From: a virus
Taxonomy: Duplodnaviria > Heunggongvirae > Uroviricota > Caudoviricetes
Strand: one strand, 5' to 3'
IMG/VR virus record: IMGVR_UViG_3300010354_007935
Location: 46,284 to 110,283 of that record
Length of the DNA stretch: 64,000 nt
Each line of letters opens with the position of its first letter. The first letter of the stretch is position 1. Shown here piece after piece: positions 44,797-64,000 of the stretch. The notes under the pieces were generated by a model, which was given only the letters and a program-made list of their open reading frames with translations, did not search any database and was not told the DNA's origin. The position numbers and the translations under genes are program-made.

Positions 44797-44799
44797 TAT

Positions 44800-44964
44800 T
44801 TCTTTTCTAGAATGATTGATCCTTCTTCAACTGTAACCGTAATTACATCGCCTTCTTTCCAGCCTAGCTTGTCACGAATTTCTTGGGGGATATTCATGAG
44901 GACGTTTTCAGGGTCCCCGTTGATTTCTTCAAAAATTTCGCTTGCATCGTAAGTGTACTTTTCC
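44800..44964 (-). CDS. small protein (53 aa), possible swapped-hairpin (AbrB/MazE-like) fold
   Basis: Manual translation MEKYTYDASEIFEEINGDPENVLMNIPQEIRDKLGWKEGDVITVTVEEGSIIL. Not in the ORF track. Confidence 0.25.
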
Positions 44965-44985
44965 ATAGCAGTATTTACTCTTAAT

Positions 44986-45844: not shown

Positions 45845-45870
45845 TTGTGCCTCTGTGTGTAGTTAATCGG

Positions 45871-45966
45871 TGCAGACGGTAGGATTCGAACCTACAAAGG
45901 CAGCTAATAGCCTAGCCCTGTTCCCTCCCCGAAGGGAGGAGGTCTACCAATTCCACTCACGTCTAC
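45871..45966 (-). tRNA. tRNA-like element (class-II-like, atypical core)
   Basis: rc gives GTAGACG...GGAATTGGTAGA...GTAGG-TTCGAAT-CCTAC-CGTCTGC-A. This forms a 7-bp acceptor stem, a canonical T-arm (GGTTCGAATCC) and a Leu/Tyr-type D-loop. The central 45 nt contain a perfect 6-bp hairpin with a UUCG loop and do not fold into a canonical anticodon arm. Confidence 0.45.
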
Positions 45967-46522: not shown

Positions 46523-48001
46523 ATGGAAGTCATATTATTAACATCAGTTTTGCCCTATCGTCTAGATGACAAAAATGTACAAGGAAGATCCTTGTACAGG
46601 GGTATGGGTGCCTATCAAGTAGCTTGGTATTTGCGAGAACACAATTATAACGTTCAAGTTATCGACTTTGTTTTCCAACGATCCGAAGCAGAGGTTGTTG
46701 ACGCTGTTAGCAGATATGTAACAGACGAAACAAAAGTAATTGGATTTGGGGTATTGGGGAACACAGTATATGATAGGCTACTATATCTTAGAGTCGCTAG
46801 CTTAATGTTTAAGCTCAAGGAAAAATTTCCTCGATTAAAATATGTTGGTGGCGGCCCAACTGCCAATCGTTTTGATTGGTTTTTGCCTCCGAAGTTGTTT
46901 GATCATATTATTGTAGGGCATGCCGAAGACACTATGCTTGCCTACTGTAATCATGTATTTAGAAACGGGCCTGCTGTTCCTTTTGAAATTAGTGCTCGCG
47001 GGAATAGACTTATCAAAGAATCGTTCTCAGTTCCAGTTGAAAAAAAATTTGATATACAGCATGATCGACATAGGTGGCACGAACGCGACTTTGTACAACC
47101 CGGCGAATCTTTACCAATTGAAACTACACGCGGCTGTATCTTTAAATGTAAGTTTTGTCAGTATCCGTTAATTGGAAAGCATAAGCTAGATTTTCTTCGA
47201 GATATGGAACTAATTAAAGAAGAAATGATAGATAATTATAATAAGTTTGGAACTACAAACTATTACATGTTAGACGATACTTTTAATGCCGACAAAGATC
47301 GTGTCGAAGCTTTTGCTAACATGGCTGCTAGTTTGCCTTTTAAAATAAGATACGCAACATATCTTAGATTAGATCTAATAGAAGCTCACAGACAAACAGA
47401 AGATATGCTTAAAGAGAGCGGTCTATTTGGTGCATTTTTTGGTGTAGAAACTTTTAATAAGGAAGCTGCGTCTCTCATCGGAAAATCTTTTAGTGGAAAA
47501 AAAGCTAAAGACTACCTTCCAGAGCTAGCCCATCAAAAATGGAATAGTGAGATCATTATCTTCTGCGGAATGATAGCAGGCATTCCTCCAGAGACAGTCG
47601 AAGAACTTTGGGAAACAAATCAATGGTTAAAGGATAACAATATCAATGGGTGGCATTGGAACGGTTTACATTTAAGTAATCACCACATCAAAGAATGGTC
47701 CAGCGAATTTGAACAAAATGCAGAGCAATACGGATTTAGATTTACAGGCCCTGATCAATGGGCACACGGCGAATATCATACATCGCAGAAAGCTCGTCAG
47801 TGGGCGCTGGACTTAGTTAAAGATTCTATTTCTCATCAACGTACTGCTTCATGGAACGGAATTGAATTGTTAAATTATCCTTCTATGACCACGCATGAAA
47901 TCTTAACTCGCCGAGTTAAAGACTATAATTTAGATCATCCTGTGCATGCTGACAGGAAAAAATTCCTAGATAATTATTGGTATCAAATTATGAATTCTTA
48001 A
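46523..48001 (+). CDS. B12-binding (class B) radical SAM enzyme
   Basis: 492 aa. N-terminal Rossmann-like B12-binding region (...VIGFGVLGNTV...), then ETTRGCIFKCKFCQYP (CxxxCxxC). Only plus-strand enzyme gene at the island edge. Confidence 0.7.
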   Translation: MEVILLTSVLPYRLDDKNVQGRSLYRGMGAYQVAWYLREHNYNVQVIDFVFQRSEAEVVDAVSRYVTDETKVIGFGVLGNTVYDRLLYLRVASLMFKLKEKFPRLKYVGGGPTANRFDWFLPPKLFDHIIVGHAEDTMLAYCNHVFRNGPAVPFEISARGNRLIKESFSVPVEKKFDIQHDRHRWHERDFVQPGESLPIETTRGCIFKCKFCQYPLIGKHKLDFLRDMELIKEEMIDNYNKFGTTNYYMLDDTFNADKDRVEAFANMAASLPFKIRYATYLRLDLIEAHRQTEDMLKESGLFGAFFGVETFNKEAASLIGKSFSGKKAKDYLPELAHQKWNSEIIIFCGMIAGIPPETVEELWETNQWLKDNNINGWHWNGLHLSNHHIKEWSSEFEQNAEQYGFRFTGPDQWAHGEYHTSQKARQWALDLVKDSISHQRTASWNGIELLNYPSMTTHEILTRRVKDYNLDHPVHADRKKFLDNYWYQIMNS

Positions 48002-49253
48002 GATCACCTATACTTGTAAGTATAGTTGGTGCGTCTAGAAGATCTTGGTCTAAATCATACACCGGTTGGAAATTAACTACAGGACCAAGTTTATAGTATT
48101 TCCTCCAAGATTTAAAACCAAGTAATCCTTTTACTGGGTCGTAATCTAAAAATTTCTTATCTAGAGATCCAACTAGATTTTCCAAGTCTGATACCATCAT
48201 TTCCCATATCTTAGTACCGGAGTGATGGCGATAGAACCAGTCGTCGTGTCTGCCTAGTAACATTCTGTCAGGCTTGCCTGCTTGATAACTCCATTTCTTG
48301 ATTGCTGGATAGATAGCAGGGACAATGCCTCTTTCATAAACACCTGCATTAAATGTAACAGAATCGACTCTAGGCAATGCTGTTGGTGTATCAGGTCTTT
48401 TAAGCCTGTCATCGTTGATCAGCATCATGTCGTAAACATTCCTATTTTCTGGCCGCATTAAAAATCTGGCTGCTAAATGTGCCTGTTTGACTATCATTAA
48501 GGGAAGTTCAGGACTATGATAAAAAAATATTTGATCCGTGTTTGGATGATTTATTGAATTATACTTGTTATTATAAATGTTATCTCTAAACATAATATAA
48601 AAATGATCTTTAGATCTAACAATTGAGGGTTTATCAATACCTTGAACAACCGCAATCCTTTTTCCAGACTCTGCAATACGTTTTAAATGTGTAAGGCGAT
48701 CTAAATTATAACGGCCAGCCATAGTTGGGTGTAACCAGTCGTTACATTTAAGTAACCAATCGTCTGCTTTATAATTCAGCATGTCCTGAAAGTAATCATG
48801 TAATGTAACTTTGATTTTAGGATATTTTTCTCGTATTGTATTAAGCCACGGAATCTGAGTTAAGAAAGTTTCTTCTATAGTGTTTTCAACTCTCGTATCC
48901 GACGGATCAGGATTCTTCCAATCTCGTAATCCTTCTAACGGAGCACTTCCAACTACTTCATCTATGTGCAACCCGTTATTTACAAAAGCGTGAAACATGT
49001 TTGTACTGTCAGCGCCGCCACTACAGAACATTACAATATAATCGTATTTTTCTCTTATCTGTCTAGCTCGTATAGCATAAAATTCATCTATGCTAGTTGT
49101 CGGCTCTTGTGTCCAGTCTATTGCTGAAAAGATATTATCATTGAAAACCCACTCCATATCTGTTCGTAGTTGCTGGGCTTTAAACATGGCCATAATTTTA
49201 TTATGAAATTTTTCTGTACCAACTTTATAATACCCTAAATCGTCTAAGTTCAT
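47988..49253 (-). CDS. PP-loop ATP pyrophosphatase family protein (AsnB-C-terminal / amidotransferase-like), paralogue 1
   Basis: 421 aa. YIVMFCSGGADSTNMFHAF (SGGxDS PP-loop). Confidence 0.55.
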   Translation of the reverse strand: MNLDDLGYYKVGTEKFHNKIMAMFKAQQLRTDMEWVFNDNIFSAIDWTQEPTTSIDEFYAIRARQIREKYDYIVMFCSGGADSTNMFHAFVNNGLHIDEVVGSAPLEGLRDWKNPDPSDTRVENTIEETFLTQIPWLNTIREKYPKIKVTLHDYFQDMLNYKADDWLLKCNDWLHPTMAGRYNLDRLTHLKRIAESGKRIAVVQGIDKPSIVRSKDHFYIMFRDNIYNNKYNSINHPNTDQIFFYHSPELPLMIVKQAHLAARFLMRPENRNVYDMMLINDDRLKRPDTPTALPRVDSVTFNAGVYERGIVPAIYPAIKKWSYQAGKPDRMLLGRHDDWFYRHHSGTKIWEMMVSDLENLVGSLDKKFLDYDPVKGLLGFKSWRKYYKLGPVVNFQPVYDLDQDLLDAPTILTSIGDLKNS

Positions 49254-50584
49254 TCTAAGTATCCTATATCCCTTCTATAGGTAAATTGACCTACATATTG
49301 TGTATCTAAGTAATCATAAATTCGTTTCGCTGCTTCCTGTCTTGAATTAGCTGTAGTTGTAAACAACGAATGTTTAATATAATATCTTTCAATGCCCATT
49401 GTTGCTCCAGCACATGTTTCAATACTTTGAATTATATTATCAGGTATGTTTTCAAACTTTGGTAGAAATGATGCAGGCCTGAGCCAGTCGTAAACACGAT
49501 TAAACACTCGTACAGAAACTGTAGACTTATTATTATGGATTACATCGGGGATCGGAAGATCTGCACTTGCCGCATAAAATAATTCAGATAAGTTATTTTC
49601 AACAGAGCCTAAAATTGAGCATAATTCAGGGTCACCACTTCGAGTATTAATTTCTAAAATATACGGAACATTATTCTTGTCAACAGCTATGCCTAAAAAT
49701 ATAAATCCCCGATAAAAGTCGTTTGATTTGCCGAGGTAGTCTTTTAAAAAATTAAAAATTTTATCGGCATATTCGTGTACTATCGGATCAGGATCGACGT
49801 TGTAACAACCAAGCCCAACAGTATTATACCCGCTGTCGCCGTCTTTTAATTTTTTATAATCTCTTGCAGAACCTAAATATTTCCAGCCGCTACGATTAAA
49901 CAATGCATGATAAGAGTACTCTCGTTTAATTTCCATGTATTCTTCTAGTACAATTTCTGTATCAAGATTTATGTTTGTAAGTTGTGCGTCACCGTTAACT
50001 AAGTACCCAAATAGTTCTTCAAAAACTGTTTCGTAATTGTCGTCGTCGACAATAATTGTTTGTCTGCCTGACTGATATACAAAATCCAACTTTACTACAA
50101 ATGGTCGTGCAAGACTTTTAAAATTTTTATAAAGATATCGCCCGTCCATTTTTTGATATTTTGGTGTTGGAATACCACATTTAGCAAGAAGTTGTTTGGT
50201 TAGATGTTTACTTCTTTCTAAATCTGTAATTTTTGGATTAACAAAAAAATAAGGTATTTTTCTATCTTGCAAATAATTGTGTATAAATGAACTTCGAGGA
50301 ACTGGGAGCCCGGACGCTAAAACAAAGTCGATTTTTTTATCTTCTGAAAATTCAGCAAATCGTTTCATGGCATTACCTACATTGAGATCGTAAGGTAACC
50401 ATGTAGTTATAGGTTCGTAGTTTTCAGTTGCCTTTACTCCAACAGCAGCTCCAAAATGATAAACGTGTGAATCCTTTTTTAGTAGCTGTGCTAAATGGTG
50501 GTAAGGGCACACCGATGACAATATAGCAATATTCATTTTTGAATTAATTTTATTACCCAGAATGTTGGATCTAATTCCCACCAA
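49250..50584 (-). CDS. ATP-grasp ligase, PurD (GAR synthetase)-like
   Basis: 444 aa. ERSKHLTKQLLAKCGIPTPKY (cf. PurD EGSKAFTKDFL...IPTAEY) and ILEINTRSGDPE (cf. PurD EFNxRFGDPE). Confidence 0.65.
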   Translation of the reverse strand: MVGIRSNILGNKINSKMNIAILSSVCPYHHLAQLLKKDSHVYHFGAAVGVKATENYEPITTWLPYDLNVGNAMKRFAEFSEDKKIDFVLASGLPVPRSSFIHNYLQDRKIPYFFVNPKITDLERSKHLTKQLLAKCGIPTPKYQKMDGRYLYKNFKSLARPFVVKLDFVYQSGRQTIIVDDDNYETVFEELFGYLVNGDAQLTNINLDTEIVLEEYMEIKREYSYHALFNRSGWKYLGSARDYKKLKDGDSGYNTVGLGCYNVDPDPIVHEYADKIFNFLKDYLGKSNDFYRGFIFLGIAVDKNNVPYILEINTRSGDPELCSILGSVENNLSELFYAASADLPIPDVIHNNKSTVSVRVFNRVYDWLRPASFLPKFENIPDNIIQSIETCAGATMGIERYYIKHSLFTTTANSRQEAAKRIYDYLDTQYVGQFTYRRDIGYLE

Positions 50585-51321
50585 TGACGACCGCCGTAAT
50601 TGGGATTTTTAGGGTCTCCATGATGATTGTTGTGCCAGCATTCTCCTTGTGTTAAAGGAAACAACCAAGGTATATTTGTACTATCGTCCTTTGTTGCGTA
50701 GTTTTTATATCCAAGATTTGGATAATGTACTACACTAGTCTGCAAACAAAATACATGTAATGTAATTAGCGCAGGCAACACTAGTAGGTAAAAGAAAAGA
50801 TCGATACTAATTAGTGCAGTGATTCCGTAAACTAACCAAATTATTTCTGTGTAGTATTTGTGAGAGAATACTACATCAGGATCTCTTAATAATTCTGGAA
50901 CTCTCCTGACACTTACATCGCCTTCTTTTAAAGTAAACATCCACGTAATATAACTGTGCCAAAATCCGTGCTTCGGACTATGGGGGTCCAAATCTGTGTC
51001 ACTGTGACGATGGTGTGCTCCTCTATGTATTCCTACCCACAAAATAGCACTTCCTTGTACTGCAATCGTTCCGCAGAACAGTATAAATCTTTTCATCAGT
51101 CTGCTAACTTCAAAACCATGATGGCTAAACAGTCTGTGGAATCCTGCCCCTATTCCAATAAACTTCATAAAGAACCAACCAATAAGAGTAGCTATCCACC
51201 ACCAGGCAGGTGCTGTGCCGGCGATTAAATTATAAATTGCCCAAATACCAAAAATATGTAGAGGTACGATTCCTCCCCATAGATGTTTAATTGTTATGAT
51301 ATTTTTAATTACTTGGTTCAT
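50533..51321 (-). CDS. membrane fatty-acid (acyl-lipid delta-9-type) desaturase
   Basis: 262 aa. Three His boxes: HRLFSHH, HRGAHHRHSD, WHNNHHGDP. Multiple TM helices. Confidence 0.8.
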   Translation of the reverse strand: MNQVIKNIITIKHLWGGIVPLHIFGIWAIYNLIAGTAPAWWWIATLIGWFFMKFIGIGAGFHRLFSHHGFEVSRLMKRFILFCGTIAVQGSAILWVGIHRGAHHRHSDTDLDPHSPKHGFWHSYITWMFTLKEGDVSVRRVPELLRDPDVVFSHKYYTEIIWLVYGITALISIDLFFYLLVLPALITLHVFCLQTSVVHYPNLGYKNYATKDDSTNIPWLFPLTQGECWHNNHHGDPKNPNYGGRHWWELDPTFWVIKLIQK

Positions 51322-51866
51322 TTACTTTTCCAGCTACGTAGTGCATCAATGTTGCCTTGATAGATAATGTGCTGCCAACAGGTTTCGTCACATTCGTTTG
51401 GGCATGTTAGGTATTTATTTGTAGCTATCTTGAAGTCTAAATTAAATTGTTTCTTAAAATTCTTTGAAACCCATTTCATCCAATTATCAGTTTGCCTACT
51501 GATAAAAAATAACTCGTACTCCGTATTATCTTTTAACCACCGGATTTGGCTTAACGTTGTCTCACCCATTGCTAAACTTATTTCTTTCATTATTTGTTTT
51601 TTGTTAGTATGTTTCCATGTTCTATTTAAAATCCTGTAGGAATTATTTGGCCAGCATTCGCGTAAAGAAATACTTGAGCACATTTCAGGATTATTGTTGT
51701 CATCAAAACAAATAGTATAGGCCACAATACCAGCATAGTCAAAAGATTTTTTACTATAATTTTCCCATAACCGATGAGATCTATCGTTGTACTGCTGTTC
51801 TCTTAAGTTATCAAAAAGTTGATCCAGGTAATTGTTTGCGCCTGGGCGCCATGTTACTGTATACAT
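51318..51866 (-). CDS. hypothetical protein (182 aa)
   Basis: ORF only. Confidence 0.3.
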   Translation of the reverse strand: MYTVTWRPGANNYLDQLFDNLREQQYNDRSHRLWENYSKKSFDYAGIVAYTICFDDNNNPEMCSSISLRECWPNNSYRILNRTWKHTNKKQIMKEISLAMGETTLSQIRWLKDNTEYELFFISRQTDNWMKWVSKNFKKQFNLDFKIATNKYLTCPNECDETCWQHIIYQGNIDALRSWKSK

Positions 51867-52723
51867 ATATTTTTTAAGAATTCATTATAATCTAAAGACC
51901 ACCGGCCATCCCATTGTTTTCCTAGTGTGTATAGTTCATTGAAGCTTTCATGTTTAAAAATTTCTAACTTTTCAATCTTTTCATACCCATGATACTTGGG
52001 ACGTTCTTCAAGTTCAAAGTTACTGTCTCTATTATAAATTATGTACTTGCTAGAATCAGACCCAAGTTTTCCAGGAACTTGATTTAACGATAAATCTTTT
52101 ATTCGTGGATCTTCTAAAAACGTTCTCATCATCTCAGGAGTGTATCGATTAAAATGAGGAGTGCCGTCAATGTTATAGAGTTTATAATAGTTAACAATAG
52201 CATAGTCGTGTTGATATATAGTCACGTCCCACGAATCATTTTCGTTTTTTCTCAAGTAGGGTTCGCCTTCTCCGCATATAACAGTTCCATCTAATTGCCC
52301 AATTGCATATGCCGTAGCAGCCCTGTGATGTACAGCTGATTTTATTTCTTTTGATATCTCTAGCATCATGCCACTTTTTACAAAGTGATCAAAATCGATA
52401 TCAATAATTAAAGGTTTTAGATTTTTGTATCTGCAAAATTTTAATGCATATTCAAGGTCATGTGAGTTATAATCATTTTTGAATTTTATTATCACAGGAG
52501 TAAAATCTATCCCAGCATCTTTAAAAACTGAAACAGTATATTCACTATCAACACCGCCGCTATACATAATATAAATTTTTCCAGTTTTTATTGATTCAAT
52601 TTTTTCAGCAGCAATTAGACTTTCTTTGTAGTATGTTAGCCCTGGAGTGATTGGAGAAATGTCTACAAAGAAAGAGTTTCCTGAACCCCTAACTGTAATA
52701 TAGTTATTTTCTGATATATTCAA
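51854..52723 (-). CDS. PP-loop ATP pyrophosphatase family protein, paralogue 2
   Basis: 289 aa. KIYIMYSGGVDSEYTVSVF. Confidence 0.5.
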   Translation of the reverse strand: MNISENNYITVRGSGNSFFVDISPITPGLTYYKESLIAAEKIESIKTGKIYIMYSGGVDSEYTVSVFKDAGIDFTPVIIKFKNDYNSHDLEYALKFCRYKNLKPLIIDIDFDHFVKSGMMLEISKEIKSAVHHRAATAYAIGQLDGTVICGEGEPYLRKNENDSWDVTIYQHDYAIVNYYKLYNIDGTPHFNRYTPEMMRTFLEDPRIKDLSLNQVPGKLGSDSSKYIIYNRDSNFELEERPKYHGYEKIEKLEIFKHESFNELYTLGKQWDGRWSLDYNEFLKNICIQ

Positions 52724-53328
52724 GTTGTTATATCCTTGTATACTACATTTGAAAATGCTTCATGCGTTTTTGGGCCTGGATGTAACTTGTCGCTGCATAA
52801 ATCTAACATTGGATTAAACGTCGATTTTACATCTTTTAAATTAGATAATTTAATAAACTCAGGTTTATATTTTAACATTGGTGCTTGTTCAGCTATGTAA
52901 CTATAGTTGTTTAAATTTAAACTTTTTAGATAAAGCTCTGCGTGATGAATATAAACCCATGACATGAATATCAGGTGCTCCTCTGTTTGTGCACCAAGCC
53001 ATTTTGAATATCCTGGAAGCCAAGCACCATACCTTTCAATTTTACTTTTGTCAATAATTGCACCTCGGGAGAACATGGTCCATAATATAACAATTAAATC
53101 ATCATGGTTGAATTTAAAATTTAAAATTTTATATAAAATTTCTAAATTGCTTGCGCCTGGATCACTACAATTTATTAAATCGATATTTAATTTGTTACTT
53201 AATAATTTTGGCCAACTGTAATTGCTTGGTGTAGCACTATCTGCTGGGCAATCTTGAAGCAGACTACCATATGTGTAGGAGCAGCCAAATGCTACCAGCC
53301 TTGTCATTTTAATTTTTTGCCCATCCAA
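52720..53328 (-). CDS. SGNH/GDSL-like hydrolase paralogue (GCSYT variant)
   Basis: 202 aa. VAFGCSYTYGS, DPGASN, DKLHPG (DxxH). Confidence 0.4.
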   Translation of the reverse strand: MDGQKIKMTRLVAFGCSYTYGSLLQDCPADSATPSNYSWPKLLSNKLNIDLINCSDPGASNLEILYKILNFKFNHDDLIVILWTMFSRGAIIDKSKIERYGAWLPGYSKWLGAQTEEHLIFMSWVYIHHAELYLKSLNLNNYSYIAEQAPMLKYKPEFIKLSNLKDVKSTFNPMLDLCSDKLHPGPKTHEAFSNVVYKDITT

Positions 53329-53765
53329 TGGAATACAGGAACCATACCTACTTTATCAGCAGATGCTAATCGAACTTTATTGTTTTTGTGTATGTGACTG
53401 CTAATAGCCCAGCAACCTTTTTCTTTGGCTATTTGTTCAAAATATCCATGGAGTATTGTATAAATTCCTAACCCTCGAGAGTCTTCGTCAACAGCACTTA
53501 ATGTTATCCACAACAGTCCTTTATTTTCGTAATGTTCGTAAACAATATGTCCAAGGATTTTTCCATTCTCGTCTGTGGCGTACACCGCTGAACAATCGCT
53601 ATCGTTCCATGATGTAAACGGATATGCAAATCCGTTATCGATAAGAGTTGCCATTTGTCGTAAAAAGAAAGTAAATATTGGACTCATGCCTAAACTATCA
53701 GTGTGCATGATTTTAATTTCCTTCCCGGACTTATCGTATTCTGTGCCAAGTTGAGTAATCTTCAT
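53304..53765 (-). CDS. GNAT-family N-acetyltransferase
   Basis: 153 aa. SRGLGIYTIL (R-x-x-G-x-G/A acetyl-CoA loop). Confidence 0.45.
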   Translation of the reverse strand: MKITQLGTEYDKSGKEIKIMHTDSLGMSPIFTFFLRQMATLIDNGFAYPFTSWNDSDCSAVYATDENGKILGHIVYEHYENKGLLWITLSAVDEDSRGLGIYTILHGYFEQIAKEKGCWAISSHIHKNNKVRLASADKVGMVPVFHWMGKKLK

Positions 53766-53805
53766 GTTATTATTCTCCTGCCGTTATTTATAGAGCCAAG
53801 AATGT

Positions 53806-53845
53806 GTAGCCAAAAAAAAAGGCTCCGAAGAGCCTTTTAAAGATG
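53806..53845 (-). terminator. rho-independent terminator
   Basis: Minus strand reads AAAAGGCTCTTCGGAGCCTTTTTTTTT, downstream of the SBP-like gene. Confidence 0.55.
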
Positions 53846-53852
53846 TTACATT

Positions 53853-54809: not shown

Positions 54810-54874
54810 TTAACGTTAAATTAGCAGGTCATGACTCCTGCTCAATTATTTATGTCTTTTGGATATAGTAGCCG

Positions 54875-55774: not shown

Positions 55775-55775
55775 G

Positions 55776-57023: not shown

Positions 57024-57024
57024 T

Positions 57025-57783
57025 TTAAAACAGCATGGTTGAAATATTTTTATAGATGTCTTTAGACAGAGGAATAAGTTTTTCTGGCATAGGTTTATTC
57101 AAAATTTTATAATAACCATTCATCAGGTAAGTTTGGTCTGTATAATTATGAACCCAGAAGTCAACTATTTTTTCTTCAGCTTCTTCGGGACTATGGGACA
57201 GATATAAAATTTTCCTAAGCTCAAAAAACAGTCCCTTCTTAAGTGTAGATCTGTCTGCCCTTGAGGATATGTTTTCTAAACAGTCGTCATCAACGTACTT
57301 GTCAGCAAATGTTTCAGTATTTTCAAAATTATAAAATGCATTTGTAATGTTGAGAACATACACTTGATCTTGCACAAATCTTGCATACCTTAACAATCTG
57401 TCTAGTATTTCTGTATTATCTACATAATCTTCAGGAATGCCCACTTCGGCAACCATGTCTTTATCATATAAGAATTTAAGCATCGGATGCTGCCTGCCAC
57501 CAACAATTGCGCTTGGGCCGATGCGTTGCGTTCTTTTATCTTCAATTGTATAGTTGATACAGTTTTGATTAGTCATAGTAAATGCATTTGGAGGCAACAT
57601 ATAAGCTATTGTTGGTAATTTAGAACTTAGAATTTCTGCTGTCTCAAGAGTTAGCCAAAAATCTTTATCATCTACTAAAATAAATCTATCCAGCCCTGGA
57701 GCAAATATGGCGTGCCTTCTTCGCTCTCCCGTTGAGTCAACATAAAAATGTCTATAAAAATTATTAAATTGATCCTGGATCAT
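57025..57783 (-). CDS. hypothetical protein (252 aa)
   Basis: ORF only. Confidence 0.3.
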   Translation of the reverse strand: MIQDQFNNFYRHFYVDSTGERRRHAIFAPGLDRFILVDDKDFWLTLETAEILSSKLPTIAYMLPPNAFTMTNQNCINYTIEDKRTQRIGPSAIVGGRQHPMLKFLYDKDMVAEVGIPEDYVDNTEILDRLLRYARFVQDQVYVLNITNAFYNFENTETFADKYVDDDCLENISSRADRSTLKKGLFFELRKILYLSHSPEEAEEKIVDFWVHNYTDQTYLMNGYYKILNKPMPEKLIPLSKDIYKNISTMLF

Positions 57784-58646
57784 AACAAAATTTCTCTAGC
57801 TTCGCTTGGGGATGCTGCCTGATAGCCCAATAATCGTAAAACATCAACAGCCATAGTTACTAGTTCTGCATTGTTTTTTGCTAATACACCTTTGCTAGTA
57901 TAGATGTTATCTTCTAAACCAACACGAACATGCCCGCCCATAATAGCTGTCATAGCAACCATGGGCATTTCCATACGTCCAATACCAAATGCACTCCACA
58001 CAGAGTTAGGAGGCAAGTCTCTGTAAGCATACATAAGTGCATTTGGTGTTGCATCCCACCCATACTTGATTCCCATTGCAAACTGCCAGAACGGGGTTCC
58101 TTTAATAGTTCCATCTGCAACAAGCTCCTTTGCTATTCGAAAATCACCACTATCAAAAATTTCTAGTTCTGGTTTGGTTCCTGCTCGCTGTACTAGTTCA
58201 ACCATTCGCTTGGTTACTAGTTTATGATTAATCCGTATGCCGCCTTCCGCTTGATGCATTGTGTTAAAGTCCATGCTGCATAAATCAGGTTTAATCATTT
58301 CAATGTGTTTAACTCTTTCTACAGCATGTAAGAGTAGACTCCCTGGAGCACCTTGAGCCAATTTATCTTTGCTAGGAATGTATAACGCACCCGGGCCTGT
58401 AGTTAAATTTATTAGAACACTAGTATTGTGTTTTTTAATTCTATCTACAGTATCTCTATACAGATCTACATCCATACTAGGGCGAGCACTTTCAGGATTA
58501 CGAACATGTATATGTACAACTGCGGCGCCTGCTTCAGCTGCTTCTAAAGCACTGGTAGCAATTTCTTCCGGAGTAACTGGCAAATAAGGTGTTTGTTCTT
58601 TACTAGTTACTGCTCCTGTAATAGCACAGGTAATAATGGTTTTCAT
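57780..58646 (-). CDS. beta-keto acid cleavage enzyme (BKACE/DUF849, 3-keto-5-aminohexanoate cleavage enzyme-like)
   Basis: 288 aa. MKTIITCAITGAVTSKEQTPYLPVTPEEIATSALEAAEAGAAVVHIHVRNPE, the N-terminal signature of the BKACE family. Confidence 0.7.
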   Translation of the reverse strand: MKTIITCAITGAVTSKEQTPYLPVTPEEIATSALEAAEAGAAVVHIHVRNPESARPSMDVDLYRDTVDRIKKHNTSVLINLTTGPGALYIPSKDKLAQGAPGSLLLHAVERVKHIEMIKPDLCSMDFNTMHQAEGGIRINHKLVTKRMVELVQRAGTKPELEIFDSGDFRIAKELVADGTIKGTPFWQFAMGIKYGWDATPNALMYAYRDLPPNSVWSAFGIGRMEMPMVAMTAIMGGHVRVGLEDNIYTSKGVLAKNNAELVTMAVDVLRLLGYQAASPSEAREILL

Positions 58647-59362
58647 AAGCTAATGCCCCCATCGACAACAATTGTTTGTCCTGTTAAGTGCTTGTTGAAT
58701 ATAACACTTTCTACCATCTGTGCAATATCTTCAGCTTCTCCTACACGTTTTAACGGAGTCATATTAGCAATCTGCTCGTTAGCGCCCGGAGGTTTAACTG
58801 CGCCAGACGTAGCTTTTTCAAGATATCCTGGTGCTATTCCAATTACTCTAATTTTAGGTGCAAGACTTTTTGCAAGTGTCTTTGTCATCAAGTCAATTCC
58901 GGCCTTAGCAGCACCGTAGGCCAGGTTACTAGTACTTGCTCTTAGACCAGCAGTCGACGAAATGTTTATAATAACACCATCGGACATGAAGGGGTGAAAC
59001 GCACGTATGGTAGAAAATGTTCCTCGAAGATTTGTGTTAATTATTTCGTCAAATATATCGTCAGTTAGTTCTTGTAGTTTTATAGGCTGGATACTTCGTG
59101 TATATCCTGCTGTATTAATTAAGATATCACAGCGTCCAATTTTTTGTGCTGCGGATACTAGGCTAGCAGAATCAGTTACATCGGCAAGAACCGCACAACA
59201 TTTTGGAGAAAGAAGACGCATTCTTGCATTGTATTCTTCCAAATCTCGTCTTACTAGTGCAACAACTGTGGCACCCATTCCTGCTAATCGATTTGAAATA
59301 GCCCAACCAACTTGTCCACAGCCTCCGGTTATTACTACAGTTTTTTCTCTTAGTGTATTCAT
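58643..59362 (-). CDS. short-chain dehydrogenase/reductase (SDR)
   Basis: 239 aa. TGGCGQVG (TGxxxGxG NAD(P)-binding), NTAG, YGAAKAG (YxxxK). Confidence 0.8.
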   Translation of the reverse strand: MNTLREKTVVITGGCGQVGWAISNRLAGMGATVVALVRRDLEEYNARMRLLSPKCCAVLADVTDSASLVSAAQKIGRCDILINTAGYTRSIQPIKLQELTDDIFDEIINTNLRGTFSTIRAFHPFMSDGVIINISSTAGLRASTSNLAYGAAKAGIDLMTKTLAKSLAPKIRVIGIAPGYLEKATSGAVKPPGANEQIANMTPLKRVGEAEDIAQMVESVIFNKHLTGQTIVVDGGISL

Positions 59363-60723
59363 ATATTATATAGTAGTTTAAATGCATCCTCTTTTAATTT
59401 TTTCTTATCAACTTTATGCACACTTGTTAATGGCATAGTTTTGATAATCCAAATATCTCGAGGGCACGAGTATGCCGGCAATTTTTGTAAGGCAAAACTC
59501 TTTATTTCTTCAATTGTAACATCATTAGTAATAGTGATAAAGGCATATGGCTTCATTCCTTTAATTTCGTCTTCTACACCAACAACCGCTGCTTCTCTTA
59601 CACAATCATGTTCTTCTAAAATAGATTCGACTTGTCTTGGATAAACATTATTTCCTCCGCACACAAACATATCATCGGCTCTGCCAACGAAATAGAAAAA
59701 TCCGTGTTCATCTTCTCTAAACAGGTCGTTAGTAATGAAAAAGTTGTCTTGGGTAAAATTATTAGATGTATTATTGTATCCAATCATCATAGATGGACTT
59801 TTTACTTGCAGTATACCGTCAACTATTCGATATTCGATACCTGGTATTCGACAACCAACGCTGAGTTCAGGCGTGGGTTTTGTTTTATGAAATCCAAAAA
59901 GCCCAGGGCCGACTTCAGTACTACCGTATGCAATTGATACGCCGGCACTGGGTATTCTATTTTTAACTTCTCTATATAGACTTAAACTTACAGGTGCGCT
60001 GCCCATAGCTATATGTTTTACGCAAGACAGATCTTGATCTGATAGTTCATTGAGTAGCAAAGACATCATAGTAGGAACTGAACTGACATAATTGATACGA
60101 TGTTCTAAAATTAAATCGATAGCTTTTTTGGGTTCAAATTTTACCATCAAGCATGCTGTTGCTCCGCTACAAAGACAAACTTCTATATTCGATAGCCCGT
60201 TCATGTGATACATTGGTGCTGCAACTAACATTCTAACTTTCGGCCAAAAATCAGATCGAGTCTTTTCTTTGAGTGTCCAAAGATGCCTGTGTGGGATTAT
60301 TACTCCCTTTGGTTTGCTAGTTGATCCAGACGTGTATAGAATAAAGGCTGGATCCGACTCGGCCATGTGCTCTACAATAACTGGGCCGGCTTCAAGGTAG
60401 TTTTTAAAATTGTTTTCTGTAAGAACAATTTTAGATTTGCTATCCTCTATTATGTAATTAACAAGAGTTTCAGGTAATCTATCGCTTATTAATACTGCAA
60501 CTGCACCAAGTCTTAATATTCCAAGATATGCAGTAATTAGATTTATACTATTTTCAGACTTAATAGCTACCCTGTCACTTTTACCAATACCGGCTTTTTG
60601 TAAACCGTTGGCATATTGATTGGCTAGGTCATCAACATCGTTAAAAGTATAGGAGCCATTATGGACTACTGCAACTTTATCATCTTTTCTGTTTAGTAGG
60701 TTACCTAGGTTGTAAGGGTACAT
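59359..60723 (-). CDS. AMP-dependent synthetase/ligase (acyl/aryl-CoA ligase-type adenylating enzyme)
   Basis: 454 aa. YTSGSTSKPKGVIIPH (AMP-binding core motif), YGSTE, GDMF... Confidence 0.8.
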   Translation of the reverse strand: MYPYNLGNLLNRKDDKVAVVHNGSYTFNDVDDLANQYANGLQKAGIGKSDRVAIKSENSINLITAYLGILRLGAVAVLISDRLPETLVNYIIEDSKSKIVLTENNFKNYLEAGPVIVEHMAESDPAFILYTSGSTSKPKGVIIPHRHLWTLKEKTRSDFWPKVRMLVAAPMYHMNGLSNIEVCLCSGATACLMVKFEPKKAIDLILEHRINYVSSVPTMMSLLLNELSDQDLSCVKHIAMGSAPVSLSLYREVKNRIPSAGVSIAYGSTEVGPGLFGFHKTKPTPELSVGCRIPGIEYRIVDGILQVKSPSMMIGYNNTSNNFTQDNFFITNDLFREDEHGFFYFVGRADDMFVCGGNNVYPRQVESILEEHDCVREAAVVGVEDEIKGMKPYAFITITNDVTIEEIKSFALQKLPAYSCPRDIWIIKTMPLTSVHKVDKKKLKEDAFKLLYNI

Positions 60724-61615
60724 TTTGATAAAATCTTTTAGTAATTGCTCCTGGGGTTTTAATAAAATTTATAATTTCATCGTAGGGGATTATAACTGCC
60801 TTATGTCTAAATTTTTTATTTCCGTGCAGATATTCAATAGGTTCAAACCCTGCATACTTAGGAAAATATGTTAATTCGTCGCCCCAATATTTTCCGTAGA
60901 GCAAAGGCTTAATGTAGTAATCCCATCTATCAACAGTTTTTAAATATTTGTTTGGATGTGTTACACCGTTACCGTCAAAGTATCTGGCGCTCATTAATGC
61001 CGCTTTAAAAATGTCATCACCAATAATACTAAGCAAAAACTCTTCTGTATTTCCATAAAAGATGTTTGCACCTTTTCGATTCAAACTTTCAAACGCCCGG
61101 GATCGTGTTATTTCTGGTAAGTAATACCCTTGCATGTAGCCAAATTTTTCATATCCGGGATACACATAGACAAACGGATCATGTACCATTTGTATAAAAT
61201 TATAGTCGTCGGGTAGCATGCTAAGAAATTTTCTTTGCAAAACATTGTTGCGGGAAGATATATCTAATTGATCAGAAATTTCAATAATCTCATCTTGACA
61301 AGCAAACGGGTCGATATCGATGATATATGTATTAAGACCGTATTTTTTATCAATCAGCTTTACTTGTTCTAGTTCATTATCATTATATCCAGGCAGGTGT
61401 AAGAATGCTGTCTCTAAAGGAATTCCTTGCGTGACAAAACTATGTATGACACTTTGACTATCAAGACCGCCACTATTTCCTAGCATAAACTTTCCGCCGT
61501 ATTGGTCAGCCAGGTCTCTAGCTCTGCGGTCAGACTCTTCACGCATATTACCAACTTCTCTGTTCCTAGAAGTCAGTTCGATAAAAAATTTGTCATCTTC
61601 AAATCCGTACTTCAT
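60701..61615 (-). CDS. PP-loop ATP pyrophosphatase family protein, paralogue 4
   Basis: 304 aa. KFMLGNSGGLDSQSVIHSF. Confidence 0.5.
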   Translation of the reverse strand: MKYGFEDDKFFIELTSRNREVGNMREESDRRARDLADQYGGKFMLGNSGGLDSQSVIHSFVTQGIPLETAFLHLPGYNDNELEQVKLIDKKYGLNTYIIDIDPFACQDEIIEISDQLDISSRNNVLQRKFLSMLPDDYNFIQMVHDPFVYVYPGYEKFGYMQGYYLPEITRSRAFESLNRKGANIFYGNTEEFLLSIIGDDIFKAALMSARYFDGNGVTHPNKYLKTVDRWDYYIKPLLYGKYWGDELTYFPKYAGFEPIEYLHGNKKFRHKAVIIPYDEIINFIKTPGAITKRFYQNVPLQPR

Positions 61616-62418
61616 TTATCAAACCATTCTCTGTAATGTTCTTTAGCTTCTTCTAAATGGGCGGATGGAAATCTAAACATTTGTTCTGCTTGTACTTTGT
61701 CTTGAGAAAACGCAGTTTCCCACATATCTGAATTAATTGCATAATCTTTTTCTGAACAGTCTTTGCTTTTGTATTTCCATACTGCTATACGGGTGTGGTC
61801 GATCGCACAAGTTACAAACAAATACCCAGCTTGCCATTCAATCATAGTAAACGGATATACAGCTATCCATCGAGCCACTATTGTATTAGATTTATCTGTA
61901 ACCGTTTGAACACTTCCCCAGTCTGTAAAGTCCCATTTAACATTAGCATCGCCTTCGATTCCTAGTAAGTCATATACTCCATTATGTACTACGGGTATAT
62001 GATCAACGTCTAAAAATATATCCATAACCACCCTAGGATCTGCATTGATACTATCAATCCTGAATTCATCTAAAAAAAGATTTTCAAACGACATATCGCC
62101 TAAAACTGTTAAGTCTATAGGGCTATCGAATAACAATCCTTTATACTCAAATACATCTTTAAAATGTAAGGGAACTTTATTACATACTTTGCTAGATCCT
62201 GAGTCATTTGGAGAACCATCAATTTTCCACGACCACCCGTGATACTGGCATCTTATTTCTGTTGTTGTTCCAGAAATAATTCGACTATTTTGATGAGGAC
62301 ATATATTACTACCTAACTTATATTTTCCGTTGTCATTGGTTAAAATACGATTGTGTTCTAATATATCTAATGATTTTGATTGTCCAGGTTGAAGGTCGGA
62401 TACGTGTCCTAGAAACAT
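61612..62418 (-). CDS. Rieske [2Fe-2S] domain protein (oxygenase alpha-subunit-like)
   Basis: 268 aa. CPHQNSRI...(15 aa)...CQYHGWSW (CxH...CxxH). Confidence 0.65.
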   Translation of the reverse strand: MFLGHVSDLQPGQSKSLDILEHNRILTNDNGKYKLGSNICPHQNSRIISGTTTEIRCQYHGWSWKIDGSPNDSGSSKVCNKVPLHFKDVFEYKGLLFDSPIDLTVLGDMSFENLFLDEFRIDSINADPRVVMDIFLDVDHIPVVHNGVYDLLGIEGDANVKWDFTDWGSVQTVTDKSNTIVARWIAVYPFTMIEWQAGYLFVTCAIDHTRIAVWKYKSKDCSEKDYAINSDMWETAFSQDKVQAEQMFRFPSAHLEEAKEHYREWFDK

Positions 62419-62454
62419 GAAGGCTCCTTTTTGAATATTTATATGGGCTAAAAA

Positions 62455-63375
62455 GTGTTAGATAAATATCTGATGACAACATCTATAATTAATTTCTATT
62501 ACGAACAAGAGCCAAAAAATTGTTCTTTCTACAGCGTATTTGTTGATATTACGCACAGATGTAACATGGAGTGCGCTAACTGCTACACACCAAATAGAGA
62601 TGTTCCAGACCTAGACCTTGATAAATTTTATCACGCACTTGCTCAGTTTCCTAAGAAAACAGAAATACGATTAATCGGTGGCGAGCCTACTGTACGTACC
62701 GATTTGATAGATATTGTAGCAAAGATTAAAGAATTAGGGCATCGCCCAACGATGATGACTAATGGGCTCATGCTAGCTCGACCCGGGTATGCAAGATCAT
62801 TAGTAGATGCAGGAATGCGTAGTATCTATATTAGTCTCAACGGTGCGGATGATGACGATGTGTACGAAGTAATGGACGGTGTTAGATGTGCAGATCGTAA
62901 GCTACTAGGATGGCAAGAATGCGTTAAAGCTAAAATGAATGTTAATGTTGGTGCTATTCTACAAAAAGGAGTTAACGACCATATTCCTGGAAGGCTTTTA
63001 GAACTATCTAACCAATATGGTGGGAACTCTATTATACGTTTCCGAAATGTAGGACAAGTTGGTCGTTATAGTTTAGAAAAAGATCAGAACTGGACATTTG
63101 GACAAATGGTGGGATTAGTATGCGATCAATTTAATAAAGATCCGTCATGGGCTGTGAAATGGAATCGCATCAATGGTTGTGATGAAAAAAATGTTATTTT
63201 CTTCCCTATGGATGAAACTAAGCGCATGAAAACCACTTGGGTAAAAATTACTGATTGGAGTCCCGCTTCAAGTAACTTCCCCGATCCTGGAAACAATCGT
63301 CGTGGTCGATTAACACAAGATTTTAAAGTTGCGCCGTTCTTTGAACATGTAAAGATATACGAAAATGTATATTAA
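62455..63375 (+). CDS. radical SAM enzyme
   Basis: 306 aa. DITHRCNMECANCYTP (CxxxCxxC), IRLIGGEPT, MMTNGLML. The start may be the ATG at 62473 rather than the GTG at 62455. Confidence 0.65.
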   Translation: MLDKYLMTTSIINFYYEQEPKNCSFYSVFVDITHRCNMECANCYTPNRDVPDLDLDKFYHALAQFPKKTEIRLIGGEPTVRTDLIDIVAKIKELGHRPTMMTNGLMLARPGYARSLVDAGMRSIYISLNGADDDDVYEVMDGVRCADRKLLGWQECVKAKMNVNVGAILQKGVNDHIPGRLLELSNQYGGNSIIRFRNVGQVGRYSLEKDQNWTFGQMVGLVCDQFNKDPSWAVKWNRINGCDEKNVIFFPMDETKRMKTTWVKITDWSPASSNFPDPGNNRRGRLTQDFKVAPFFEHVKIYENVY

Positions 63376-64000
63376 TAAATCGTGGGGAGATAGTATAGAT
63401 ACTATAAAACATTCGTTGCCATTAGACGAATGGTATTCCTCCCACCCAAAGTTACCGTATAATTATTTTAAACTTCCTGCACGATATAGTTTTGATTTAT
63501 CAGAAATGCGTGAGCATGTTGAATCTATGAACACGGTATCTATACAGGCAAGCTCTAACGGTAGACGATTTAGTAAGTACAGGGGTTTAGGATTCTTTGC
63601 TAGAGAGGAAAGCGATAGTCCTTTAGAAGATCACTTTGTTAGACGAGATGAGGAATATGGCCAAGTATTTCCGGACGACTTACACTTACAGGATCGTTTA
63701 CCGAAACTATACGAAGACGACTTCAGCAAGCCAACCGAAATACTTGATAGCTATTTTACAAAAGTATTTTCAGTATTCAATCAGCCAATAACCAAAGCTA
63801 GTGTATTAGAGCTTCGTGCTGGTGGGTGGCTAGGCAGTCACGTAGATTTCCCTTATTACAAAACTATACGCCTACACGCTAGCATCCGAGGTTGCAATAA
63901 TGCTTGGTATGAAATAGAAGGAGAGCGTTTTCAAATACCCGAAGACGGCCACTGGTATTTTATAGATACGGGAAAATATCACAGTATATGGAACGAAGGG
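63365..64000 (+). CDS. aspartyl/asparaginyl beta-hydroxylase-like 2OG-Fe(II) oxygenase, 3' partial (runs off window end)
   Basis: Manual translation MYINKSWGDSIDT...AGGWLGSHVDFPYYKTIRLHASIRGCNNAWYEIEGERFQIPEDGHWYFIDTGKYHSIWNEG. It follows the H.D...R.H...GE...W.FD....H..N pattern of the AspH family. Not in the ORF track because there is no stop. Overlaps the stop of the preceding gene. Confidence 0.45.
   Translation, partial: MYINKSWGDSIDTIKHSLPLDEWYSSHPKLPYNYFKLPARYSFDLSEMREHVESMNTVSIQASSNGRRFSKYRGLGFFAREESDSPLEDHFVRRDEEYGQVFPDDLHLQDRLPKLYEDDFSKPTEILDSYFTKVFSVFNQPITKASVLELRAGGWLGSHVDFPYYKTIRLHASIRGCNNAWYEIEGERFQIPEDGHWYFIDTGKYHSIWNEG

Follow-up and report, generated by a model that had tools for sequence, protein, structure and literature searches.

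The right-hand part of a 64,000-nt stretch of DNA from an uncultivated tailed virus (Caudoviricetes; IMG/VR record IMGVR_UViG_3300010354_007935, positions 46,284 to 110,283), hereafter the window, carries a dense island of enzyme genes whose near-invariant core, consisting of a 252-aa protein (u252) and a 415-aa PP-loop ATPase (PP415), is a new pair of proteins without characterized relatives. The island is phage-borne, conserved and uncharacterized; phage auxiliary and biosynthetic islands are known as a kind, and it is the protein families that are new. The reading that we favor, and hold to be quite possible although short of probable, is that an uncultivated clade of jumbo phages has a hypervariable site for accessory genes in this region, at which at least four separable enzyme modules have accumulated; an organic acid would be imported, held and activated with ATP, and ligation and oxidative tailoring would come from the other modules.

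The ORF listing and translations place 16 consecutive ORFs on the minus strand, from 62418 down to 47988. Their junctions are tight: in 13 of the 15, the neighbors overlap by 4 to 23 nt or are separated by a single nucleotide, and the sole real intergenic gaps (87 nt and 77 nt) lie on either side of the gene for a DctP-like binding protein. The run is bounded by plus-strand radical S-adenosylmethionine (SAM) genes at 46523-48001 and 62455-63375, and a further plus-strand ORF, encoding an Asp/Asn-hydroxylase-like protein, begins at 63416 and exits the window at 64000. On the related contig L001, on which the island genes are 97.8-100% identical in a gene-by-gene comparison, the DNA past base 64000 completes the hydroxylase (235 aa) and goes on to encode an AcpP-type acyl carrier protein (ACP), a second desaturase, several unknowns and more 2-oxoglutarate (2OG) oxygenase paralogs; from this gene content, we put the island at ~23 kb, including ~5 kb beyond the window end, with roughly 25 genes in total.

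An enzyme island had been reported in a preliminary description made from the sequence alone, and that observation is confirmed. The head-to-tail minus-strand genes with plus-strand radical-SAM genes at the edges are borne out by the ORF map, nearly all of the domain calls were reproduced with Pfam and NCBIfam, and each of the four proposed PP-loop proteins has an SGGxDS motif. The feature thus stands, with its original extent of 17.5 kb being ~5 kb too short. Most of the 16 or more enzyme genes originally counted hold up as well, the exceptions being the 252-aa and 182-aa genes, for which no enzyme family is detectable, and the proposed esterase comes down to a GDSL match under its cut-off (19.9 vs. 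23.6 bits). The statement that no described pathway fits was also upheld: no Pfam or NCBIfam equivalog, PHROG or PADLOC system explains the set.

The core pair, the two binding proteins encoded next to it and a hairpin that follows them are as follows.

57025..57783, minus strand: u252, 252-aa protein without a detectable enzyme family; obligate upstream partner of PP415
55776..57023, minus strand: PP415, PP-loop ATPase of 415 aa with an SGGIDS motif; the other half of the near-invariant core pair
54875..55774, minus strand: TctC-like binding protein of 299 aa (TctC 9.7e-4, 19.2 bits) with a Sec-type signal peptide
53853..54797, minus strand: DctP-family (TRAP-type) binding protein of 314 aa (DctP 6.4e-51, 173.8 bits); last gene of unit 1
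53817-53838, minus strand: terminator-like hairpin, with a T run after its 9-bp GC-rich stem (AAAAGGCTC...GAGCCTTTT), located 15 nt past the DctP stop, in one of the two real gaps

The hairpin resembles an intrinsic terminator and, if it acts as one, would divide the gene run into unit 1, from the Rieske oxygenase gene to the DctP gene, and unit 2, from the GNAT acetyltransferase gene to the last PP-loop gene (PP421).

u252 is encoded directly upstream of PP415 in 48 of the 53 related viral loci. Its family comprises 162 clusters, shows no domain fusion among 1.84 billion representatives and has no fold match in the PDB, including to protease folds or the recognition element (RRE) of ribosomally synthesized and posttranslationally modified peptide (RiPP) systems. 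None of the 333 metagenomic homologs of PP415 is named or has a Pfam domain. The AlphaFold2 model of PP415 (pLDDT 89.8) resembles proteins of uncultured Caudovirales (TM-score 0.7-0.8), and its PDB matches, to asparagine synthetase, TsnB9, beta-lactam synthetase, NadE and LarE, are weak (E >=8e-3, TM <=0.35), as are the matches of its profile to AsnS, LarE and NadE. The closest, albeit weak, resemblance is to enzymes that adenylate carboxylates, namely, the C-terminal domain of asparagine synthetase, TsnB9 and beta-lactam synthetase. PP415 does not qualify as an asparagine synthetase B or class-II amidotransferase, given that it has no glutaminase domain, reaches 18.7 bits against the cut-off of 21 for Asn_synthase in Pfam, with ~40 residues covered, and scores 17 against 267 for TIGR01536. 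In 11 related loci (L033, L043, L045-L047, L049, L057, L062, L063, L067 and L073), a conserved, His- and aromatic-rich protein of ~94 aa with one hydrophobic segment (MNKKYPFWARARHHLEHSNMGYWYH...) is encoded directly upstream of u252; this gene is absent from the window.

The DctP-like protein has the fold of its family but probably not the job. Its closest solved chains are solute-binding proteins of tripartite ATP-independent periplasmic (TRAP) transporters, in which the arginine of the KxR motif is the presumed carboxylate ligand; 25 of 27 viral homologs retain this arginine, which is conserved with the TRAP binding proteins of known structure. Thus, fold, score and arginine are those of a TRAP binding protein, but the export signal is not there: all 27 viral homologs, as well as a bacterial-looking copy on contig L019, lack a signal peptide and start at the mature N terminus. 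Because no copy carries a signal peptide, the protein would have to act in the cytoplasm rather than as a periplasmic uptake receptor. No DctQ or DctM partner was found, with none of the island ORFs examined containing five or more transmembrane-like segments. DctP is 86-98% identical between phages whose neighboring genes reach 45-76% (comparisons with L022, L024, L044, L048 and L059), which points to unusually strong constraint or to recent exchange of single genes, and it remains beside the gene for BKACE (beta-keto acid cleavage enzyme) across rearrangements (L012-16, L048, L051 and L058).

The TctC-like protein is secreted, as far as can be told from its N terminus: a Sec-type signal peptide is present in 25 of 25 homologs from related loci, and the homolog on L023 has the domain PF03401. 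A TctA permease gene (49% to a bacterial "tripartite tricarboxylate transporter permease") is found on L068 and L075 (15533-17364) and on L076 (10909-12246). On these viral contigs, it is preceded by a gene for a 138-aa, TctB-sized membrane protein and, on L068 and L075, lies a few kb from PP415-TctC-DctP; neither TctA nor TctB is encoded in this window. TctA, the TctB-sized protein and TctC in these relatives would be a complete phage-encoded tripartite tricarboxylate transporter (TTT), and a real transport role of the secreted TctC-like protein is credible because two related viral contigs encode TctA together with the TctB-sized protein.

Upstream of the core pair lies a trio of genes for enzymes of acyl metabolism, including a short-chain dehydrogenase/reductase (SDR).

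59359..60723, minus strand: acyl-AMP-forming ligase of 454 aa (AMP-binding 1.4e-65, plus AMP-binding_C)
58643..59362, minus strand: SDR of 239 aa (adh_short 6.4e-38), FabG/glucose-dehydrogenase-like, reaching no equivalog
57780..58646, minus strand: BKACE (PF05853 1.1e-93, 314 bits vs. a cut-off of 24.8)

BKACE is matched over its full length by the Pfam model of this TIM-barrel family, has the metal-ligand motifs (HxH and acidic) as VHIHVR and GLED, and matches the solved chains 9zsc and 3c6c at ~1e-74. It scores well against the models for Kce and for 3,5-dioxohexanoate and 3-oxoadipate cleavage, staying below the cut-off of the Kce equivalog (NF052387; 242.9 vs. 382 bits) and likewise below those of the other named BKACE equivalogs. 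The SDR adjoins BKACE in every related locus that has it, and the closest solved chains of the ligase are MenE, malonyl-CoA synthetase, FadD13 and adenylation domains of nonribosomal peptide synthetases. The BKACE family was reportedly described by Bastard et al. in 2014, with Kce acting in lysine fermentation and other members in dehydrocarnitine cleavage. A paired SDR and BKACE oxidize a beta-hydroxy acid and cleave the resulting beta-keto acid with acetyl-CoA to acyl-CoA and acetoacetate (10.1101/205583; for an overview of the family, see 10.1101/2023.02.15.528638). Because a thioester is exchanged for a thioester, BKACE could equally run in the chain-extending direction, starting from the acyl-CoA made by the adjacent ligase.

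The island is not peculiar to one assembly. At least 24 public contigs encode a BKACE protein identical to this one; in IMG/VR, relatives of BKACE were found on 12 viral contigs (345 kb and 206 kb long among them), and relatives of PP415 in 53 loci. On L022, a diverged 110-kb contig, gene order is kept along the whole island and on through the ACP, desaturase and hydroxylase genes past the window, at a per-gene identity of 52-98%. L022 differs in that a small DUF2061 membrane protein stands in place of TctC, the GDSL-like gene is absent and there is an extra PP304 paralog (54% identity), located after the BKACE gene. The mosaic of per-gene divergence in this comparison points to gene-by-gene exchange.

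Across the 53 loci, the parts of the island assort independently. Within 10 kb on either side of PP415, DctP was found in 25 loci, GNAT in 22, PP289 in 18, the desaturase and PP304 in 15 each, PP421 and TctC in 14 each and the B12-type radical SAM protein in 7, with the ligase-SDR-BKACE trio present in 5 and the PurD-like, 182-aa and Rieske proteins in 3 each. The gene directly after PP415 is GNAT, DctP or TctC in 31 of 46 loci (GNAT in 13 of the 46). The ACP occurs in 2 related loci only, which weakened an ACP-centered lipid pathway, one of the unifying ideas considered. The trio, in turn, occurs alone and at another position in L007, L008 and L011, which share the backbone (ligase, 74%; 6-pyruvoyl-tetrahydropterin synthase [PTPS], 84%): there, it is located between radical-SAM genes and a homolog of the window gene 20977-22155. 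Homologs of the backbone genes at 43170-45844 flank variable island content in L024, L025, L027, L044, L048 and L059, and this flank looks like that of a fixed hypervariable site.

Counterparts outside this clade are scarce. Against 50,697 GenBank phage records, megablast of the island DNA returned nothing and tblastn of BKACE, PP415 and PP421 found no counterpart; PHROGs gave generic radical-SAM matches only for the ten island proteins compared; PADLOC gave only generic QueC and viperin-core matches and, hence, no known defense or antidefense system; and no account of such a system was found in the literature on BKACE in phages, PP-loop proteins in jumbo phages or DctP in phages. When the genomes of 185,579 bacterial and archaeal species were searched in a pattern scan based on the PP415 profile, three loci among the matches listed were confirmed, and one of these, again among the matches listed, is syntenic, with the order ligase-SDR-BKACE-u252-PP415-DctP at 25-63% identity. 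This copy lies at the end of a 243-kb contig (L019) binned as Pseudobdellovibrio; two housekeeping-type pyridoxal phosphate (PLP) enzymes are encoded close to the module, which suggests that the contig is part of a cellular genome, and a cellular version of the six-gene module probably exists. At 6326-14311 of L019, the six genes give way to those for another AMP-ligase, for a DUF1574-like protein and for an acyltransferase of the MBOAT family and then to those for the PLP enzymes, of the cystathionine type and PALP. We take the layout of AMP-ligase, DUF1574-like protein and MBOAT acyltransferase to resemble that of the Dlt system.

The remaining genes fall into two further groups, the first comprising unit 2 and the radical-SAM gene at the left edge.

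53304..53765, minus strand: GNAT acetyltransferase of 153 aa (Acetyltransf_1 6e-9); first gene of unit 2
52720..53307, minus strand: possible SGNH/GDSL hydrolase of 195 aa (Lipase_GDSL 8.6e-4, 19.9 vs. 23.6 bits)
51854..52723, minus strand: PP289, PP-loop ATPase of 289 aa with an SGGVDS motif and weak QueC and MnmA matches
51318..51866, minus strand: 182-aa protein; in L024, L048, L059 and L022, its gene accompanies those for PP289, the desaturase and the PurD-like protein
50533..51321, minus strand: FA_desaturase-family membrane protein of 262 aa (3.1e-15; 57.1 bits vs. a cut-off of 29.7)
49250..50536, minus strand: PurD-like ATP-grasp ligase of 428 aa, with the start taken from public gene calls (GARS_A 3.8e-23)
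47988..49253, minus strand: PP421, PP-loop ATPase of 421 aa with an SGGADS motif; last gene of unit 2
46523..48001, plus strand: radical SAM protein of the B12-binding type, 492 aa (Radical_SAM 6.8e-13, 49.6 bits), with a CIFKCKFC motif; left island edge

The second group surrounds the start of unit 1.

63416..64000, plus strand: Asp/Asn beta-hydroxylase-like cupin, 235 aa in full (20 bits for the partial ORF)
62455..63375, plus strand, divergent: radical SAM protein of 306 aa (Radical_SAM 4e-18) with a CNMECANC motif
61612..62418, minus strand: small Rieske nonheme iron oxygenase of 268 aa (Rieske 4.4e-13, 49.4 bits); first gene of unit 1
60701..61615, minus strand: PP304, PP-loop ATPase of 304 aa with an SGGLDS motif; paralog of PP289

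The motifs SGGADS, SGGVDS, SGGIDS and SGGLDS assign four island proteins to the PP-loop ATP pyrophosphatase superfamily. Profile-profile comparison with hhalign revealed full-length homology between PP289 and PP304 (98.7%) and linked PP421 to PP304 (95%) and PP289 (91%), so that these three are full-length paralogs, with PP415 joining them through the PP-loop region alone; single-sequence pairwise comparison of the four showed the motif only, and profiles were needed to bring out the paralogy. The joint PP289/PP304 profile matched NadE (2.6e-6) and also MnmA, TtuA, TilS and QueC, and the two proteins are, on these matches, best described as generic PP-loop ATP pyrophosphatases. A place in the 7-deazaguanine pathway is not indicated: QueC was matched at 18 bits against a cut-off of 22, in the PP-loop region only, and the sole 7-deazaguanine partner in the window is a PTPS/QueD-like gene ~28 kb off. 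PP421 has no match in Pfam, NCBIfam or PHROG, and the 182-aa protein none in Pfam, NCBIfam, PHROGs or PADLOC.

The 428-aa ATP-grasp protein is PurD-like and not demonstrably PurD. It aligns over the full length of TIGR00877 (purD) but at 125.7 bits against a cut-off of 288, and it is ~25% identical to the solved PurDs, with the E-x-N-x-R-x-GDPE motif retained. The desaturase (PF00487) has the three His boxes (HRLFSH, HRGAHH and HNNHH) and hydrophobic segments of its family. In the radical SAM protein at 46523..48001, the B12-binding domain scores 25.2 bits, below its threshold of 32.1; the best NCBIfam model is that of the PhpK-family P-methyltransferase (1.8e-21), and the best matches, all of them to B12-radical-SAM families, fall far under the cut-offs. 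For the radical SAM protein at 62455..63375, the best NCBIfam matches (TrsS and MoaA-like) cover the N-terminal half only. The Rieske protein has the cluster ligands (CPH...CQYH) and a D-x2-H-x4-H iron site (DVDHIPVVH), and in the PDB it weakly resembles phthalate dioxygenase, CntA and SxtT; a partner reductase was not seen among the window genes. The full-length L001 copy of the AspH-like cupin exceeds the family cut-off (27.7 vs. 22.6 bits), compared with 20 for the partial ORF of the window, and is followed by the AcpP-type ACP (4.6e-27), the second desaturase and the additional 2OG-oxygenase paralogs. There is an expansion of 2OG and cupin oxygenases (L001, 1-3577; window, 18202-18834): three paralogs of the window 2OG-Fe(II) oxygenase and one 2OG-FeII_Oxy_5 protein come after the island. 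Several unannotated cupin-like families also recur near PP415 in related loci, with an H-x-D...H pattern visible by eye and one weak AspH match.

We favor the import, holding and ATP-dependent activation of an acid because the core pair recurs with carboxylate-binding proteins, GNAT and, in some relatives, a permease, and we regard the island as a composite rather than one demonstrable pathway because its parts assort independently across related loci. Under this scheme, module 1, the near-invariant one, would be a two-protein ATP-dependent activating system of u252 and PP415, usually accompanied by the ligand-binding proteins and GNAT. The secreted TctC-like protein would take up a carboxylic acid in the host periplasm and pass it to a TctAB permease, presumably that of the host here and phage-encoded in some relatives; the DctP-like protein, having no signal peptide, would keep the acid or a derivative in the cytoplasm; u252/PP415 might then adenylate the carboxyl group, yielding an amide or another acyl derivative; and GNAT could acetylate an amino group. 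Module 2, consisting of the acyl-AMP ligase, SDR and BKACE, would convert a beta-hydroxy or beta-keto acid into an acyl-CoA or the reverse, acetyl-CoA and acetoacetate being the cosubstrates, and, depending on the direction in which BKACE works, may feed or drain the acid handled by module 1. Further ATP-dependent ligation and oxidative tailoring would fall to module 3 (PP289, the 182-aa protein, the desaturase, the PurD-like ATP-grasp protein, PP421 and the B12-type radical SAM protein) and module 4 (the Rieske oxygenase, PP304, the radical SAM protein, the AspH-like hydroxylase, the ACP and the second desaturase). Gene content, the operon layout, the assortment of the modules, the missing signal peptide and the novelty of the core pair are observed; that all of these substrates are as named, and that the modules share one metabolite, is what we infer. 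A bolder claim, which we hold to be less likely than not, is that u252, PP415 and the cytoplasmic DctP-like binder make up an undescribed enzyme system that is almost confined to phages, in which a transporter-type binder has been recruited to deliver substrate to an ATP-dependent carboxylate-modifying enzyme and which, together with the PP-loop paralogs, the PurD-like protein and the oxidative enzymes, would yield a phage-specific metabolite or modification without a cellular counterpart.

Several points weigh against the composite, acid-handling reading. None of the enzymes could be assigned a substrate, and a search of Rfam with a permissive cut-off turned up no riboswitch or ligand clue. 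The terminator is a match to a consensus and nothing more, the near-universal overlap of the genes is also expected of a single co-expressed pathway, and the whole island is collinear on L022. The related loci were found via PP415 itself, and some come from the same or near-identical contigs, so that the co-occurrence counts overstate the independence of the sample. The TctC copy of the window is below the Pfam threshold (19.2 vs. 27 bits), and we know of no role for a cytoplasmic TRAP-type binding protein. Finally, most characterized PP-loop ATPases act on nucleotides or RNA, and the PP289/PP304 profile matches NadE, MnmA, TtuA, TilS and QueC, which gives a nucleic acid target some likelihood.

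Among the alternatives, the one that fares best, which we nevertheless consider unlikely, is a single dedicated pathway in which all ~25 genes build one small molecule, such as an acylated, hydroxylated and methylated pseudopeptide or amide on a CoA or ACP carrier, to serve as a toxin, signal or cofactor. Such a pathway would suit the tight translational coupling of the 16 genes, the full collinearity on L022 at 52-98% identity, including the ACP, desaturase and hydroxylase past the window, the many carboxylate-activating and tailoring enzymes, as in natural-product clusters, and the AcpP-type ACP adjoining the island. However, collinearity at this divergence is normal among related phages and is no proof of a functional unit, the trio stands alone in L007, L008 and L011, the core pair is without the trio in 48 of the 53 loci, the ACP is found in just two related loci, and a terminator-like site lies within the island. 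The single 17.5-kb pathway implicit in the preliminary description gives way on these grounds (the hairpin, the independent assortment in 53 loci and the trio on its own in a relative) and is also undercut by the SDR-BKACE pair being a known cleavage module (10.1101/205583). Two other possibilities allowed for in that description were not borne out: the enzymes are not a set from separate known pathways without conserved synteny, as gene order is kept in related phages, and the island does not look like a freshly captured host locus, as GC content at third codon positions (GC3) is uniform and there is one syntenic cellular-looking copy among the matches listed. Recent host capture was rejected on the GC3 values, which are 0.24-0.35 over all island genes.

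Less likely again is nucleic acid hypermodification, in which bases of the phage DNA, precursors of nucleotides or tRNA would be modified by the PP-loop ATPases together with the PurD-like ligase, GNAT and the radical SAM protein resembling MoaA and viperin, as a means of escaping restriction or of retuning translation. It has precedent in phage hypermodification islands (PMC5889632 and PMC8989533) and draws on the same NadE, MnmA, TtuA, TilS and QueC matches of the PP289/PP304 profile, on the PurD signature motif retained in the PurD-like enzyme, on the MoaA-/viperin-like core of the radical SAM protein at 62455 and on a PTPS/QueD-like gene (18831) and a MazG-like gene (31698) found elsewhere in the window, outside the island. 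Set against this, the QueC-type matches are limited to the generic PP-loop region; no TGT/DpdA, FolE, QueE equivalog, hydroxymethylase, 5-hydroxymethyldeoxyuridine kinase or glycosyltransferase was detected within the 64 kb; and the commonest partners of the core pair are carboxylate-binding proteins of transport type, with a TctAB permease in some relatives, which have no obvious role in nucleic acid chemistry.

Modification of proteins or peptides strikes us as improbable. In this scenario, PP415 would act on a side-chain carboxylate in the manner of a lasso cyclase or amidating enzyme, and the hydroxylases, radical SAM proteins and GNAT would decorate tail fibers or host proteins. The best, albeit weak, fold matches of PP415 are indeed to the asparagine-synthetase/beta-lactam-synthetase group, which includes the lasso cyclases; AspH-like and cupin/2OG oxygenase paralogs recur around the core pair; and three SPASM radical SAM genes and a fourth radical-SAM gene lie at 23784-28587, near tail-fiber genes. 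Yet there is no ORF of precursor-peptide size in the island, nor room for one, since the intergenic gaps are at most 87 nt; u252 matches neither an RRE nor a protease fold; no target was identified; and the binding proteins, BKACE, the ligase and the desaturases are left unexplained. An ordinary catabolic set or captured host locus, by which a beta-hydroxy or dicarboxylic acid would be taken up and broken down for energy or acetyl-CoA, with the remaining genes as passengers, has equally little to recommend it: the combination of SDR and BKACE with a transporter and CoA activation is a known design (10.1101/205583), BKACE scores well against the Kce, 3,5-dioxohexanoate and 3-oxoadipate models, and the syntenic six-gene copy sits near housekeeping-looking PLP enzymes on the 243-kb Pseudobdellovibrio-binned contig, but that is the one syntenic cellular-looking locus among the matches listed, DctP, of which no copy has a signal peptide, cannot serve as a receptor for uptake in the periplasm, conservation within the neighborhood is lowest for the trio (5 of 53 loci), GC3 is uniform and phage-like, and such a set leaves no place for u252, the four PP-loop ATPases, the radical SAM proteins or the PurD-like ligase.

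The rest of the window is that of a tailed phage, judging from its virion genes and from relatives whose IMG/VR contigs reach 345 kb; the 64 kb include neither a capsid nor a terminase gene. A 3607-aa ORF (4373-15196, minus strand) matches several tail-fiber/virion PHROGs, as does a 488-aa ORF at 19453-20919, and in tandem with the former is an ORF of more than 1366 aa (3-4100, minus strand) that runs off the left window end and whose N terminus looks tail-fiber-like by eye. The T4-type ATP-dependent DNA ligase is at most 34.6% identical to its listed best matches in cultured phages. Adjoining the tail-fiber genes, at 17054-19337, genes for the UV-damage endonuclease UvdE, for a 2OG-Fe(II) oxygenase and for the PTPS/QueD-like protein lie together, with the PTPS being 84% identical to its counterpart in the 345-kb relative. 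Between the tail-fiber-like genes and the accessory region, the four consecutive radical-SAM genes at 23784-28587 (minus strand), of which three are SPASM paralogs (34% and ~23% mutual identity) and to which a related set exists in the 345-kb relative, look like peptide- or protein-modifying machinery. Genes for a Bax-inhibitor-1/YccA-family membrane protein (30999-31694; 2e-53), a ClpP protease (34670-35311; 2.8e-77) and an SPFH/Band-7 protein (35435-36382) lie close together and, because YccA and HflK/C-type proteins modulate FtsH, may control membrane proteolysis. ARAGORN identified a 98-nt tRNA-Arg(UCG) at 45869-45966 (minus strand) that has, by eye, a long variable arm and a Leu-like D-arm and whose best Rfam match, below threshold, is tRNA-Sec. 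The codon reassignment that this tRNA suggested was rejected, as homologs have Arg or Lys at the positions of CGA codons in two island genes.

Auxiliary metabolic genes of jumbo phages are usually recognizable pieces of host pathways. The island differs from these in its roughly 25 genes and in that its most conserved parts have no characterized relatives. It resolves into defined units, of which the core has two genes, the ligase-SDR-BKACE trio is portable and the TRAP-type binder is cytoplasmic. It is also a reminder that dense phage enzyme islands need not be single biosynthetic clusters. Depending on what these units do, the outcome could be a new PP-loop enzyme function, an intracellular use of solute-binding folds or a phage rewiring of host carboxylic acid or lipid metabolism.

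Among known systems, AsnB, beta-lactam synthetase and TsnB9 share with PP415 an SGGxDS PP-loop followed by a helical domain and provide its best fold and profile matches; PP415 differs from the asparagine-synthetase type in having no glutaminase domain, a sub-threshold Asn_synthase match, TM-scores of at most 0.35 and an obligate partner, u252. The AsnO/Ngg system makes N-acetylglutaminylglutamine amide (NAGGN) and is comparable in that GNAT and an ATP-grasp protein are encoded near a PP-loop gene in the island, but the ATP-grasp protein here is PurD-like, unlike Ngg. Phage solute-binding proteins used with host transporters, such as cyanophage PstS, offer a parallel for the secreted TctC-like protein, which has no permease in this phage and is accompanied by TctA/TctB in relatives; it differs in belonging to the TTT rather than the ABC family and in being paired with a cytoplasmic TRAP-type binder and activating enzymes. 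The desaturases recall the lipid desaturases of cyanophages (PMC5776448), which are likewise short, phage-carried FA_desaturase proteins with three His boxes, but here there are two paralogs (up to three in relatives), located among PP-loop ATPases, with one coupled to an ACP gene and with no evident link to a photosynthetic host. With phage hypermodification islands (PMC5889632 and PMC8989533; for 7-deazaguanine, 10.1101/2023.04.13.536721), the region shares the combination of radical SAM, PP-loop (QueC-type), acetyltransferase and ATP-dependent enzymes, whereas the defining enzymes of those islands were not detected in the window and the recurrent partners are transport-type carboxylate binders. 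The closest parallels for the trio are SDR-BKACE modules such as that of the oxidative deoxyribonate pathway (10.1101/205583); shared are the adjacency of SDR and BKACE and the presence nearby of a CoA-activating enzyme and a carboxylate-binding protein. The island departs from this arrangement in being phage-borne, in reaching no NCBIfam equivalog cut-off, in having no thiolase or CoA-transferase and in placing the trio in one operon with PP-loop ATPases, u252 and a binder that is cytoplasmic.

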